DNA from: Leucoraja ocellata
Taxonomy: Eukaryota
Assembly: GCA_036785375.1 (NCBI GenBank)
Contig: JAWMAR010002335.1
Coordinates: forward strand, 62,309-126,000
Length of the DNA: 63,692 bases
Reading direction: 5' to 3'
The position numbers and the translations under genes are program-made. Under the pieces are notes generated by a model. The model saw nothing but the letters and a program-made list of their open reading frames with translations. It was not told the origin of the DNA and ran no database searches. Position 1 is the first letter of the stretch. Each line of letters begins with the position of its first letter. Positions 12,818 to 24,300 of the stretch are shown one piece after another.

Positions 12818-13078
12818 GCAGTCCTGGTCAGTCCTTTGAAGATAGACACCAGTTGCTTGGAGCAACTCAGCGGGACGGGCCGCATCTCTGGAGAGAAGGA
12901 ACGTAAATGCTGCCTGGCCCGCGGAGTTCCTCCATTCATGCCTGTGTGAGAGTGAGGGAGGGAGAGTGTGAAGAAGGCTCTCGACCCGAAACGCCACCCG
13001 TTCCTTCTCTCCAGAGATGCTGCCTGTCCCGCTGAGTTGCTCCAAGCAACTGGTGTCTATCTTCAAAGGACTGACCAG

Positions 13079-13115
<37 letters not shown>

Positions 13116-13213
13116 CCTCCCTCTCACACAGGCGTGACTGGAGGAACTCCGCGGGCCAGACAGCATCTACGGAGAGAAATGGGCAGGCGACCCATTCTTC
13201 AGGCTGCCTTATG

Positions 13214-13244
<31 letters not shown>

Positions 13245-14191
13245 CTCCCACCCACACACGCGAATGCAGGAGAAACTCAGCGGGTGCAGCAGCATCTATG
13301 GAACGAAGGAAATAGACAACGTTTCGGCACCGCTGCACCCGCTGAGTTTCTCCAGCATTCGCGTGTGTGGGTGGGAGTTGGGGTGAGGGGGGGGGGGGGA
13401 GAGACATAAGGCTGCCTGAAGAATGGGTCGTCTGTCCATTTAACTCCGTAGATGCTGCCTGGCCCGCGGAGTTNNNNNNNNNNNNNNNNNNNNNNNNNNN
13501 NNNNNNNNNNNNNNNNNNNNNNNNNNNNNNNNNNNNNNNNNNNNNNNNNNNNNNNNNNNNNNNNNNNNNNNNNNNNNNNNNNNNNNNNNNNNNNNNNNNN
13601 NNNNNNNNNNNNNNNNNNNNNNNNNNNNNNNNNNNNNNNNNNNNNNTCCTTTGAAGATAGACACCAGTTGCTTGGAGCAACTCAGCGGGACAGGCAGCAT
13701 CTCTGGAGAGAAGGAACGGGTGGCGTTTCGGGCTGAAAGTTTCTTCAGACTGAAAGTTTCACCTCTCAGTAGATCATAAAATAACACAATCATCACGGTC
13801 AATGTGAGATACAGTGTTTATTCATATTTGACAAAATAAAAAGACGACTACTTGCACATATTGAGAGAAGGTGCATCACACCAAACAACATTTGTCTAAA
13901 AAAACACAAATTATTCTTCAGCTCATTAAAGAGCTCGGGTGAAAAAAACCAATATAGTGTATGACAACAAAGTAACATCATTTGTGCCACGTGATTAACT
14001 ACACTACAGTCCACGATGTTCATTCGGGAAAGATCGGGAGACGGACAAGTCACCTGCACAAATGACAGAATTGCCGAGTACCGTGGGAACTCTTTACTCT
14101 ACCCCCGTTATATCGTGGTGATATCGTGCTAGACCACGACCACTCCACTCTGGCTACATCTTGCGTCAAGTCGCCCCGTGTAAACTACCCA
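11953..14191. mobile_element. Non-autonomous Harbinger/PIF-like DNA transposon in the J-C intron, filled with rearranged SINE-like pieces
   Basis: Ends ACCCCTTTTCACGGTGCGACTTGACGCAAGA and TCTTGCGTCAAGTCGCCCCGTGTAAACTACCC are inverted copies (core GCGACTTGACGCAAGA exact); flanks taa/tga. The family assignment is inference. Confidence 0.65.
12420..13745. repeat. Direct and inverted copies of a (CT)n / SINE-like unit, including a ~145-bp-arm palindrome (13146-13473)
   Basis: Repeated cacaggcgtga...aactccgcgggccag, aactcagcggg and gatagacaccagttgcttggagc units in both orientations; adjoins an N gap. Confidence 0.8.
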
Positions 14192-14589
14192 TGACTATGT
14201 TTGTTTCATATGCGCTGAGAAGAAACAAACTGAGACCAAGTACCTGCTGTTGATTAGAAAATACAGTTCGATGCATCGCAGATCAAGGACCACAACAATC
14301 TCAAACAATTAGAAAGCATAGTGAAAGCAAATTGATGCAAAATTTTCCACTAATTTGGAACTAAACCGCATCCACTTCATAGTCAAAGGATCGAAAGTCA
14401 TAGCACATAAGGCGTTTAAATCGGCAATCTCACTGCAGCAAAATCACATAACATTCTAAAGCACCATCGATCCAACATTGCAATGAATGGGTAATTAATG
14501 TAGAAGAACAATTTAATATAATTATTGGAAATATAGGTTAAAATTACAACTGGATACATCTAGAGACTGAATAGGATGACGTTTCTTAC

Positions 14590-14636
14590 CGCTGGTTACC
14601 GTCACCATGGTGCCTCCTCCCAGTAGTTAGGAGAGT
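14590..14636 (-). CDS. IGHJ: JH segment with an apparent 1-nt deletion in the W-G-x-G motif
   Basis: ACTCTCCTAACTACTGGGAGGAGGCACCATGGTGACGGTAACCAGCG|gtaag. The 3' frame gives GGGTMVTVTS and the 5' frame gives SPNYW; the two are offset by one base. Confidence 0.93.
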
Positions 14637-14675
14637 CACGGTGTTACATTCTATGGGGTTCTTCACACAATAACA
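14637..14675 (-). other. JH recombination signal sequence (23-RSS)
   Basis: Read on +: heptamer CACGGTG (14637-14643), exactly 23 nt of spacer, nonamer ACAATAACA (14667-14675); abuts the J coding end. Confidence 0.92.
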
Positions 14676-14984
14676 TGATCTGCACAAGGCAGGCAAAAAA
14701 AAGAACAAAAATCCTGTAATTATTCGTATTTCACATCTAAAGCAAATGCCTTATTGCTCTTTGAAAACAATGAATGCATTAACAAAATCATTTCCAACAA
14801 TAATCACATACAAACAGGGCAGTGAAATGTGATAAGAATCATCTACATATAAAATATAAATTAACTCAAGTTACCTCTACAATAAAATGTGCGGAAATAT
14901 TCCGGGACATGTTTATGCTCCTGTTGTATGAAATATTAAATTGAAAATATCATATACTGGCCCAGATCACAGTATTATGGGTTG

Positions 14985-15013
14985 TGATGTTGTTTTAGGT
15001 AGGAAGCGCTGTG
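14985..15013 (-). other. Recombination signal sequence 3' of the V(DD) exon, 12/13-nt spacer class
   Basis: Heptamer CACAGCG (15013-15007), then CTTCCTACCTAA(A), then a degenerate nonamer ACAACATCA (6/9 to ACAAAAACC at a 13-nt spacer). No nonamer at a 22-23 spacing. Confidence 0.7.
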
Positions 15014-15337
15014 TCATCTGCCCCTGTTGATCTGTCGCACAGTAATAGACAGCGGTGTCTTCGATCTTCAGGTTCCTGGCGATCACGGTGAACATATTAT
15101 TCGAATTGTCTTTGGACGGAGTAAATCGGCTCTCGATCCCTGGAGCGAAGTAGTCGGTGCTAGTCGGCGCGCGGTAAGCAAGCAGCCACTCCAGCCCTTG
15201 CCCGGGGACCTGACGGACCAAATATATATAGTAGCTGCTAAGAGTGAACCCGCTGGTTTTACAGGTCAGTGTGATGGAGCCTCCAGGAACCGCGGTCCCT
15301 GTCTTGGGCTGAGTGAGAACGATCTCGGAATGGACAC
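15014..15337 (-). CDS. IGHV: IgM VH exon (L2 + VH) with 17-nt in-frame 3' extension; probable germline-joined V-D-D
   Basis: Acceptor ttgcag|GT. Translation (R)[107 protein letters not shown]. Both Ig cysteines and the GLEW and DTAVYYC motifs are present; no stops. Confidence 0.95.
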
Positions 15338-15512
15338 CTGCAAGTTAAAAAAATACATGAATGGCGAGGATAAAATATTGACCATTAATCCCCCACTCTA
15401 ATTATCAATAGGAAATACATTGGGGAGGGTTCTAGAGTGGGTAGAAGGGGAATGGTGTAGGGGATTATAGCACTGAGAAACTCGTGAGGAATTTGTCCAA
15501 CTCATTACTCAC

Positions 15513-15558
15513 GGACTATTAACGCCAGGAACAGACTGAGTGAAACCGCAGACATCAT
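15513..15558 (-). CDS. IgM heavy-chain leader exon (L1), MMSAVSLSLFLALIV(R)
   Basis: 46-nt exon from ATG (15558) to phase-1 donor C|gtgagt; hydrophobic signal peptide; 175-nt intron to the V exon, the typical split Ig leader. Confidence 0.93.
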
Positions 15559-15650
15559 CCCGCTGGGAAGTTTGACCGGTTGTTTCTGTACAGAACCTCG
15601 CAACAAACCCACTGCAAGGAAGTTGGACTTCGGCCCCCTCTTAGAGAGAA

Positions 15651-15657
15651 TTAAATA
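15651..15657 (-). promoter_or_regulatory. Putative TATA-like box of the VH promoter (TATTTAA)
   Basis: About 95 nt upstream of the leader ATG in a GC-rich stretch; I saw no octamer in the proximal promoter. Confidence 0.5.
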
Positions 15658-16855
15658 CCCGGCAAAAGTGGGCGCGGCTGTGGGTGGACCAGTAAACCGA
15701 GTGGTGCAGCGGCGGAGCTGAGACACGGCTCCAAACTCAACAGCAAGATGGACTCACGATATCACATCTATTAACTGATACACATGCACACGAGGTTAAT
15801 AAAACAGCGTGCTATTCCGCCCCTTACACAATATAAACTCACGGTATAGTTGTAAATAAGATGGTTGAAAGATTGGTCTCATAGTGCAGTTTTTCGTAAA
15901 ATATGTTCGGAATTCCTCAAATTTAAATTTAAATGCTTCGTGGTGTGCGTGTGCTTGCGTGCGTGAGAGGAGAGAGTGGAGAGAGGAGAAAAANNNNNNN
16001 NNNNNNNNNNNNNNNNNNNNNNNNNNNNNNNNNNNNNNNNNNNNNNNNNNNNNNNNNNNNNNNNNNNNNNNNNNNNNNNNNNNNNNNNNNNNNNNNNNNN
16101 NNNNNNNNNNNNNNNNNNNNNNNNNNNNNNNNNNNNNNNNNNNNNNNNNNNNNNNNNNNNNNNNNNNNNNNNNNNNNNNNNNNNNNNNNNNNNNNNNNNN
16201 NNNNNNNNNNNNNNNNNNNNNNNNNNNNNNNNNNNNNNNNNNNNNNNNNNNNNNNNNNNNNNNNNNNNNNNNNNNNNNNNNNNNNNNNNNNNNNNNNNNN
16301 NNNNNNNNNNNNNNNNNNNNNNNNNNNAGCTAGACATAAATGCTGGAGAAACTCAGTGGGACAGGCAGCATCTCTGGAGACAAGGAATGTGTGACGTTTT
16401 GGGTCGAGAGCCTTCCCCAGACCTCCAGAGACACTGCCTGTCCGCTGAGTTACTCCAGCATTTTGTGTCGAGCTTCATTTAAAGCAGCATCTGCAGTTCA
16501 TTCCTACACATTCGTTGTTATCAATATGAGCCGTTCGAACAATATTGGGACTGTCCATTCCAATATCAAGATACATTTATTTGTCACATGTCCCAGTTGC
16601 TACAGTGAAATGTGTGGTCACCGTACAGCCATACAGATAAAATGTCAATATCGAGATTGGTTACAAAAAAGGCAGTAGAGGAAATTGATAATAAAGCAAA
16701 CACAAAATTCTATTAAAATGTCATGAAGAGATCGGAAGGAAATTAATGGATGGCATAGTGCAGGAGGGGAATTGTAGATCTGTGGAGCGATTGGAGAAAT
16801 GATCGGCATTAGGGATGATTTATGTGGTGTTGATTTTCAGATGCTGCTTCCAATG

Positions 16856-17446
16856 AACATAGAAACATAGAAACAGAAATAGGTGCAGGAGTAGGCCATT
16901 CGGCCCTTCGAGCCTGCACCGCCATTCAATATGATCATGGCTGATCATCCCAATTCAGTATCCTGTACCTGCCTTCTCTCCATACCCCCTGATCCCTTTA
17001 GCCACAAGGGCCACATCGAACTCCCTCGTAAATATAGCCAATGAACTGGCCTCAACTACCTTCTGTGGCAGAGAGTTCCACAGATTCACCACTCTCTGTG
17101 TGAAAAATGTTTTTCTCATCTCAGTCCTAAAGGATTTCCCCTTTATCCTTAAACTGTGACCCCCTTGTCCTGGACTTCCCCCAACATCGGGAACAATCTT
17201 CCTGCATCTAGCCTGTCCAACCCCTTAAGAATTTTGTAAGTTTCTATAAGATCCCCCCACAATCCTCTAAATTCTAGCGAGTACAAGCCGAGTCTATCCA
17301 GTCTTTCTTCATATCGAAGTCCTGACATCCCAGGAATCAGTCTGGTGTAACTTCTCTGTACTCCCTCTATGGCAAGAATGTCTTTCCTCAGATTTGGAGA
17401 CCAAAACTGTACACAATACTCCAGGTGTGGTCTCACCAAGACCCTG
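16856..17446 (-). mobile_element. CR1/HER1 LINE 3' fragment, 1.3 kb upstream of the IgM leader
   Basis: [22 protein letters not shown]...; (catagaaa)n tail. Confidence 0.9.
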
Positions 17447-21364: not shown

Positions 21365-24300
21365 AGAAACATAGAGGAAACATAGAAACATGGAAAAATA
21401 TGTGCAGGAGTAGGCCATTCGGCCTTCTGAACAGGAACCACCATTCAACATAATCATGGCTGATCATCTAAATTCAGTACCCCGTTCGTGCTTTTTCCCC
21501 ATATCCCTTGTTTCCATTTGTCCTAAGAGCTAAATCTAACTCTCTCTTGAAAAGATCCAGAGAATTGGCTCTGCTGCCTTCTGTGGCAGGTAATTCTGCA
21601 GATTCACAAGTCCCTGGGTGAATTTTTTTATCCTCATCTCAGTCCTACATGGCCTATCCCTTATTCCTACACCGTGACCTCTGGTTCTGGACTAACATAC
21701 CATTTGCTTTCTTTACTGCCTGCTGCACCTGCATGCCTACCTTCAATGACTGGTGTACCATGACACCCAGGTCTCGCTGCATCTCCCCCTTCCCCAATCG
21801 GCCACCATTTAGATAATAGTCTGCTTTCCCGTTTTTGCCACCAAAATGGATAACCTCACATTTATCCACATTATACTGCATCTGCCAAATATTTGCCCAC
21901 TCACCCAGCCTATCCAAGTCACCTTGCAGTCTCCTAGCATCCTCCTCACAGCTAACACTACCCCCCTGCTTAGTGTCATCCGCAAACTTGGAGATATTGC
22001 CTTCAATTCCCTCATCCAGATCATTAATATATATTGTAAATAGCTGGGGTCCCAGCACTGAGCCTTGCGGTACCCCACTAGTCACTGCCTGCCATTGTGA
22101 AAAGGACCCATTTACTCCTACTCTTTGCTTCCTGTTTGCCAGCCAGTTCTCTATCCACATCAATACTGAACCCCCAATGCCTTGTGCTTTAAGTTTGTAT
22201 ACTAATCTCTTATGTTGGACCTTGTCGAAAGCCTTCTGGAAGTCCAGATACACCACATCCACTGGTTCTCCCCTATCCACGCAACTAGTCACATCCTCGA
22301 ATAATTCTATAAGATTCGTCAGACATGATTTACCTTTCGTAAATCCATGCTGACTTTGTCCAATGATTTCACCACTTTCCAAATGTGCTGCTATCCCATC
22401 TTTAATAACTGACTCTAGCAGTTTCCCCACTACCGATGTTAGACTAACTGGTCTGTAATTCCCCATTTTCTCTCTCCCTCCCTTCTTAAAAAGTGGGGTT
22501 ACGTTTGCTACGCGCCAATCTTCAGGAACTACTCCAGAATCTAAAGAGTTTTGAAAGATTATTATTAATGCATCCACTATTTCTGGACCTACTTCCTTAA
22601 GTACTCTGGGATGCAGCCTATCTGGCCCTGGGGATTTATCGGCCTCTAATCCATTCAATTTACCCAACACCACTTCCCGGCTAACCTGGATTTCACTCAA
22701 TTCCTATAACTCATTTGACCCGCGGTCCCCTGCTATTTCCGGCAAATTATTTATGTCTTCCTTACTGAAGACGGAACCAAAGTAGTTATTCAATTGGTCC
22801 GCCATATCCTTGTTCCCCATGATCAACTCACCTGTTTCTGACTGCAAGCGACCTACATTTGTTTTAACTAATCTCTTTCTTTTCACATATCAATAAAAAC
22901 ATTTGCAGTCAGTTTTTATGTTCCCTGCCAGTTTTCTTTCATAATCTATTTTCCCTTTCCTAATTAAGCCCCTTGTCCTCCTCTGCTGGTCTTTGAATTT
23001 CCCCCAGTCCTCCGGTATGCTGCTTTTTCTGGCTAATTTGTACGCATCATCCTTCGCTTTGATACTATCCCTGATTTCCCTTGTTATCCATGGATGGACT
23101 ATCTTCCCTGATTTATTCTTTTGCCAAACTGGTATGAACAATTTTTGTAGTTCATCCATGCAGCCTTTAAATGTCTTCCATTGCATATCCACCGTCAACC
23201 CTTTTAGAATTAATTGCGTCAATCTTGGCCAATTGGCCAAATCTGACACCATTCAGATAATAAACTGCCTTCCTGTTCGTGCCACCAAAATGGGTAACCT
23301 CACATGTATCCACATTATACTGCATGCATCTGTCTTATTTTAAGTCACCTTGCAGCCTTATAGCATCCTCATCGCAGCTCCCACTGCCACCCAGCTTTGC
23401 GTCATCCGTAAATTTAACTTGGAAATGCCACATTTAATTCCCTCGTCTAAATTGTTAATAAATATTGTAAATAACTGGGGTCCCAGCCCCGAGCCTTGCC
23501 GCACATCATTTGTCACTGCCTGGCATTCTGAAAAGGACCAGTTATGCCTACTCTTTGCTTCCTGTCTGCCAACCAGTTCTCTATCCATGTCAATACCCTT
23601 CCCCCATTACAATGTGATCTAATTATGCACAATAATCTCTTGTGTGGGACCTTGTCAAAGGTTTTTTGAAAGTCCAGATACACCACATCTACTGGCTCTC
23701 CCTTATCCATTCTACTTGTTGCTTCCTCAAAAAATTCCAGAAGATTAGTCAAGCATGATTTCCCTTCATAAAGCCATGCAGACTTTGACCAATCCTGTCA
23801 CTGTTTTCCAAATACGCTGCTATGACATCTTTAATAATCGACTCCAGCATCTTCCCCACGACCGATGTAAGGCTAACTGGTCTATAATTCCCCGTTTTCT
23901 CTCTCCCTCCTTTCTTAAAAGGTGGAGTTACAACGGCTGCACTTCAGTCTACAGGAACGGATCCAGTCGGGAGAATATTGGAAAATGATCACCAATGCAT
24001 TCATGATTTCTAGAGCCACTTGCTTGAGTACTCTGGGATGCAGGTCAACAGGCCCTGGGGATTTATTTGTCTTCAGCCCCAACAGCTTGCATAACACCAT
24101 TTCCTGACTAACGTGGGTTCCCTTCAGTTCCTCCCTCCCACTAAATCCTCGGCCCCCTCGTATTTCTGGGAGATTGTTTGTGTCTTTCTTAGTAAATACT
24201 GAACCAAATTACTCGTTTAACTGATCTGCCATTTCCTTGCTTTCCATTAGAAATTCACCTGTCTCTGATTGTAAGTGACCTAAGTTTTCTTCACTGATCT

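Follow-up and report, generated by a model that had tools for sequence, protein, structure and literature searches.

We find that the IgM heavy-chain minicluster in a 63,692-nucleotide stretch of the Leucoraja ocellata genome (hereafter the window) has its V, D1 and D2 segments fused into a single unit facing J, and we consider it likely that this VDD-J arrangement is an inherited germline join. The joint itself is real in the assembly. The assembly totals 3.44 Gb; the window covers bases 62,309-126,000 of its 145-kb contig C2335 and contains one complete IgM minicluster on the minus strand. A single leader-V, a D region and J are followed by four C1-set exons and a secretory tail, and the TM exon, also on C2335, is found ~1.1 kb beyond the start of the window. 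No second V was found on contig C2335. The best identities of the VH exon are to cartilaginous fish, with 64% and 62% to Chiloscyllium punctatum and 61% to Heterodontus HV01, and the protein searches, in which nothing exceeded 64% identity, returned no record of the window junction. The coordinates of the cluster and its joint are collected in Table 1.

Table 1. Features of the IgM minicluster, its V-D-D joint and the element inserted in its J-Cmu intron (window coordinates).
Feature	Position	Strand	Remarks
Leader exon MMSAVSLSLFLALIV	15513..15558	-	GT donor intact; matches sister clusters
VH exon	15031..15337	-	frame open; Pfam V-set E 7.5e-15
V 3' end, GCGACAGA		-	untrimmed; same as unjoined sisters L008, L013, L014, L016
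TC, palindromic to untrimmed V end	15029..15030	-	probable P nucleotides, as judged from the V end; C also fits D1
D1 core CAACAGGGG, 9 nt	15021..15029	-	D1 allele TACAACAGGGGGT minus 2 nt per end
CA between D1 and D2	15019..15020	-	untemplated, probable N, as judged against D1 and D2 of unjoined sisters
D2 3' tail GATGA	15014..15018	-	adjoins D2 heptamer; only 4 bases match D2
D2 3' 12-RSS	14985..15013	-	heptamer CACAGCG as in sisters; spacer and nonamer damaged as assembled
D2-J interval	14644..15006	-	private 16-nt deletion near 14812
JH 23-RSS	14637..14675	-	identical to group-1 sisters
JH	14590..14636	-	one G short in WGGG codons as assembled, frameshift
2.2-kb terminal-inverted-repeat element, J-Cmu intron	11952..14190	.	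young, private to window cluster
Cmu1 exon	8058..8354	-	open, intact splice sites, C1-set
Cmu2 exon	6323..6640	-	open, C1-set
Cmu3 exon	4602..4898	-	open, C1-set
Cmu4 exon with secretory tail	2408..2799	-	open, C1-set

The initial annotation of this DNA had noted that the end of V (TGT GCG ACA GA, positions 15041-15031 of the minus strand) is followed by no heptamer, that the next 17 nt continue in frame as DQQGQM, and that CACAGCG then leads directly to J. Each of these observations was confirmed. Neither a heptamer nor a V 23-RSS is present after V, the 17 nt, TCAACAGGGGCAGATGA (15030-15014, minus strand), extend the reading frame to CATDQQGQM, and the 377 nt from CACAGCG (15013-15007) to the J heptamer at 14637 contain no RSS-flanked D. 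The prediction that the 17 nt would resolve into trimmed D cores and added bases was likewise borne out, the segment reading as V-end P bases, a D1 core, N bases and a D2 tail. When the 17-mer was shuffled, a D1 match of at least 9 nt arose in 67 of 100,000 shuffles. At the other end of the joint, the D2 3' tail is GATGG or TATGG in the sister clusters, and one VDD-J pair (L003/L004) shares the ATGA ending found here. Altered D2 3' ends beside an intact heptamer were in fact observed in several clusters (ATGA or ATTGTA in L003/L004, L020-L022 and L026, as against ATGG in unjoined clusters); they could reflect renewed cutting at the signal that remains, or simply substitution.

Missing from the joint are the V 23-RSS, both D1 signals, the D2 5' signal, and the V-D1 and D1-D2 intervals. 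The span from the V end to J is correspondingly 421 nt here versus 1,169 nt in an unjoined sister, such that ~750 bp are gone. In its untrimmed V end, palindromic TC, trimmed D1 and D2 and two extra bases, the joint is built like a V(D)J coding joint. A single V-to-D2 join that left out D1 was rejected on account of the 9-nt D1 core. Since a direct V-to-D2 join would not keep D1, two joins obeying the 12/23 rule are the simplest route. The remaining interval aligns to the D2-J interval of sister clusters, with 353 matches in 381 columns. Its identification as a V-D1 or D1-D2 spacer was rejected, the best local alignments to these covering 18-19 nt. The decomposition of the 17 nt and the identity of the interval thus uphold the two joins proposed in the initial annotation; their fixation in the germline, which it had also proposed, is likely, but the junction is single-copy among those scored.

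We propose that two RAG-mediated joins took place in the germ line of an ancestor, in a germ cell or its precursor, and generated the VDD-J configuration. Under the 12/23 rule, V(23) would have been joined to D1(12) and D1(22) to D2(12). In a B cell, a single D2-to-J join could then give rise to a heavy chain with the fixed CDR3 start CATDQQGQM-.

The case for inheritance is built on the sister clusters. These were found by DNA search, and 40 of about 60-64 candidates were scored, the counts being a lower bound. Twenty of the 40 are unjoined and have the organization V(23)-(12)D1(22)-(12)D2(12)-(23)J. The other 20 are joined in one form or another: 13 are VDD-J, four are VD-D-J, one is VD-DJ, one carries the D1 5' signal on J, and one is fully joined. 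The 13 VDD-J clusters represent six junctions, four of which recur, in 2, 4, 3 and 2 copies. In the one recurring pair measured, the C regions are 0.63% apart, and four copies are located on a single contig. Because the same VDD-J junction is shared by diverged copies, joins of this kind must be inherited, and germline joining appears, from these comparisons of assembled clusters, to be routine in the present genome. Junction duplication is a sufficient but not a necessary sign of inheritance. The window junction is present in a single copy among the 40 clusters scored of 64 candidates; we nonetheless regard its germline origin as likely, because half of the clusters (20/40) are joined and four of the six VDD-J junctions are duplicated. 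As a set, with about half of the IgM clusters examined joined and close enough to unjoined sisters for their joints to be dissected and ordered, these clusters bear on the frequency of RAG action in germ cells.

Phylogenetic trees were built from 20 and 21 group-1 clusters, with C1661 omitted from the C-region tree owing to its insufficient coverage and group-2 clusters not included. Joined clusters are scattered among unjoined ones, which fits repeated independent events. The nearest relative of the window cluster is C2360a in the C-region tree and C353 in the V-side tree. This difference between regions, together with the poor-looking consensus at the joint, is what might be expected if the V of one cluster had been connected to the D2-J interval of another by an assembly chimera or read error. 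We consider such an artifact extremely improbable. A chimeric switch would be expected within homologous sequence, not at a 9-nt D1 core with P- and N-like bases set precisely between a V end and a D2 heptamer, and other clusters likewise swap neighbours between the two trees. Differences among V genes (window positions 15150-15175 and the sisters) are concentrated in CDR1 and CDR2, where they occur in patchwork combinations; along with the discordance between V-side and C-region trees, this suggests that sequence may have been exchanged between clusters.

Several of the joined sister clusters have unusual structures. In one (L081, G000:C1356, ~249,780-250,190), the heptamer of the D1 5' 12-RSS adjoins a J trimmed by ~5 nt. 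No D1 or D2 bases are left, the V 23-RSS is kept, and an unjoined sister (C1748) lies at 0.78%. This cluster likely represents a hybrid joint that would make a D-less, one-step V-J gene. A second (L080, G000:C353, ~2,381,930-2,382,300) has V joined to D1; after the D2 5' heptamer come eight bases that match D2 in reverse orientation and then J, an order that likely reflects an inversional route. Two public runs share the D2-signal/J join of this cluster, X6 with an exact match over 30 nt and X2 with one differing letter, hence at least one odd join of the assembly is inherited. A third (L082, G000:C1868, ~71,280-71,360) is a full VDDJ join with no intervals left, in single copy among the 40 clusters. 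All partial states are represented in this family, among them a D-less cluster and a likely inverted-D2 join. It is conceivable, though rather unlikely, that the window join belongs to a still-running series of RAG events in the germ line, and that it is polymorphic between animals and bears re-cutting scars at both remaining signals. If so, unjoined sisters only 0.8-2% away would allow germ-line V(D)J recombination to be measured, in both its rate and its chemistry, in a living population.

The sequence around the joint is of uneven quality. Private indels of 1-2 nt, mostly in homopolymers, number 16 in 2,667 aligned bases at 14194-17200, bounds that were picked post hoc with the data already in view, compared to 8 in 31,099 elsewhere. 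The patch covers ~13.7-17.2 kb, and its indel excess reaches 2 kb upstream of the leader and promoter. Private substitutions are much less raised, at 22/4,237 and 29/5,946 in the C region and 6/452 in J and the D2-J interval. Comparisons with ten to eleven sisters revealed no such patch in other joined clusters, single-copy ones included. The patch looks like an under-corrected consensus derived from very few long reads. The preprint 10.1101/2021.07.02.450803 describes homopolymer errors in HiFi reads and a loss of their coverage at GA-rich repeats. A (GACA)n tract is located just upstream of the promoter in 20/20 sisters and the corresponding window site is unreadable; a coverage trough driven by this repeat is plausible. 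The patch is centred at neither the joint nor the repeat site but at a point between them, so its position does not decide between a cause centred on the joint and one centred on the repeat.

An alternative origin for the joint is a somatic VDD-J intermediate of a single lymphocyte that was built into the contig, the inherited cluster being unjoined. Reads from unjoined cells would misalign over the 750-bp deletion, thereby leaving the somatic read uncorrected near the joint, and the indel patch does surround the joint and suggests thin read support there. The single copy of the junction among those scored points the same way, as do nurse shark data: shark thymocytes frequently contain VDD-J, which is also found in B cells, and 9 of 15 VDD-J cDNA clones from spleen were mutated (PMC2435157). 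We nevertheless judge a somatic origin unlikely. The patch is off-centre from the joint and continues 2 kb past the promoter, and a coverage trough would be needed in addition, with the majority unjoined path having to be missing. Assemblers normally favour the majority path, in this case the unjoined one. VDD-J also has a high prior probability in this assembly (13/40). Furthermore, the V exon, with one private substitution in 313 bp compared to ~5 per kb for the C region, carries no hypermutation load. The pattern of somatic mutation in B cells, in which V and the D-J interval bear point and tandem mutations and sequence upstream of the promoter is spared, is not what we observe here. Somatic hypermutation was accordingly rejected as the source of the private changes, with V nearly clean and the indels extending upstream of the promoter. 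No unjoined twin of the cluster is present in the assembly, where the best matches reach 98% in an intron stretch and 96% at the promoter; this result is neutral with respect to germline or somatic origin. Public runs carry little weight in either direction. Among 24 runs listed, none contained half of the sampled sequence words. None of four (X1, X2, X3 and X6) covers 14996-15026, in contigs that drop rare variants and cannot show absence, and the private C-side SNPs are unseen in X1, X2, X3 and X4, whose contigs collapse rare variants and may come from other species.

The functional state of an inherited VDD-J cluster depends on two lesions that both lie inside the indel patch. In the sisters, the D2 RSS has an exact 12-nt spacer followed by ACAAAAACA, whereas in the window the A-tract of the nonamer is broken by changes in this stretch, namely three substitutions and deletions of 2 nt and 1 nt. 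Of the 12/13-type signal described in the initial annotation, the heptamer therefore stands, but a clean RSS does not, given that spacer and nonamer are broken as assembled in comparison with the sisters. The G missing from J is present in 20/20 aligned sister clusters. As the annotation had stated, a flush join keeps the J tryptophan in frame; as assembled, however, with J one G short, it stops at ...NSPNYWEEAPW* and is not productive. The only open joins are those trimming at least 8 J bases, in which the tryptophan is lost. The final D2-to-J step would operate, and the statement that only one somatic join remains would hold, only if the nonamer damage and the J frameshift are errors of the consensus. 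We think it probable that they are; otherwise, with both lesions real, the cluster would be a decaying pseudogene. Its functional state cannot be read from the present assembly, in which the RSS and the J frame, the sole functional clues, sit where the sequence looks least reliable.

Within the inherited join, a special case would treat the changes at the D2 signal and the 5' end of J as real scars that closed off the last step, left by RAG cutting and re-joining (open-and-shut) or by error-prone repair. We hold this version to be improbable, and its weight is included in the likelihood given to the germline join as a whole. At the D2 signal, a 30-nt stretch contains six private changes, and the start of J has three in 15 nt. 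Next to an intact heptamer, the D2 3' end is altered in L003/L004 and the L020 group as well. Yet changes are packed just as tightly upstream of the promoter, where no signal sequence is near, and the heptamers are intact.

Germline, partially joined IgH clusters of the horn shark and little skate were reportedly described by Kokubu in 1988 and by Harding in 1990. The VDD-J germline arrangement is thus ordinary, having been on record for sharks and skates since 1988; as a single locus, the window adds one more junction to the class described then. Among IgH clusters of the horn shark and little skate, a significant fraction is of the VDD-J, VDJ or VD-DJ type, and a germline hybrid joint has been described (PMC2193153). 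The window resembles these clusters in its V-D1-D2-J-C minicluster organization, its VDD-J form and the presence of unjoined clusters alongside in the genome, and departs from them in the apparent RSS and J lesions, whose reality is uncertain. Horn shark heavy-chain joints have been hard to dissect and their expression was not detected (PMC2193156). In contrast, the sisters in the present genome are ~2% off in the C region, so that P, N, D1 and D2 bases can be assigned.

Germline light-chain joins with trimming and P bases have also been reported (PMC2193156). The nurse shark NS4 light-chain genes in that source share with our clusters the trimming, the P-like bases and the occurrence of independent joins interleaved with unjoined relatives. 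Unlike NS4, the window cluster encodes a heavy chain, contains two joins, is incompletely joined and has two probable N bases, whereas NS4 shows little TdT activity. The NS4 joins were verified in erythrocyte DNA and in other animals (PMC2193156), and the window join is known from one assembly. Somatic VDD-J in nurse shark thymocytes and B cells has an identical configuration and joint anatomy (PMC2435157). It is, however, cell-specific, and its B-cell transcripts are often hypermutated over V and the D-J interval (PMC2435157), while the window V shows almost no mutation and duplicated joins are numerous among the sisters. Partly and fully pre-joined clusters have been reviewed (PMC4279169). 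Among them, nurse shark IgM1gj is a germline-joined IgM heavy chain, as we propose for the window, but consists of a full VDJ join without Cmu2 and is dominant in neonates (PMC4279169); the window cluster is joined only as VDD and keeps all four Cmu exons. The portions of PMC12227049 and PMC2192082 consulted add nothing further on germline joining. A genome-wide census of joined IgM clusters was not found in the literature searched, most subscription papers and old scans falling outside that search.

The locus also carries private insertions or rearrangements. The 2.2-kb element in the J-Cmu intron is absent at the matching site in 20/20 sisters. Its right end is 98-99% identical to 39 other copies among those listed, TTA is present on its left flank, and 1,413 candidate places were found in the genome. 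A different insertion of ~190-250 bp is located a few bases from the site of this element in 14/20 sisters. A second private rearrangement or insertion was observed at 21694-23236, where the window has 1.54 kb compared to ~325 bp in 11 aligned sisters (871 in one). Finally, the J-Cmu intron contains an inverted duplication (window positions ~9200-9290 and 10220-10340) that is common to the sister clusters.
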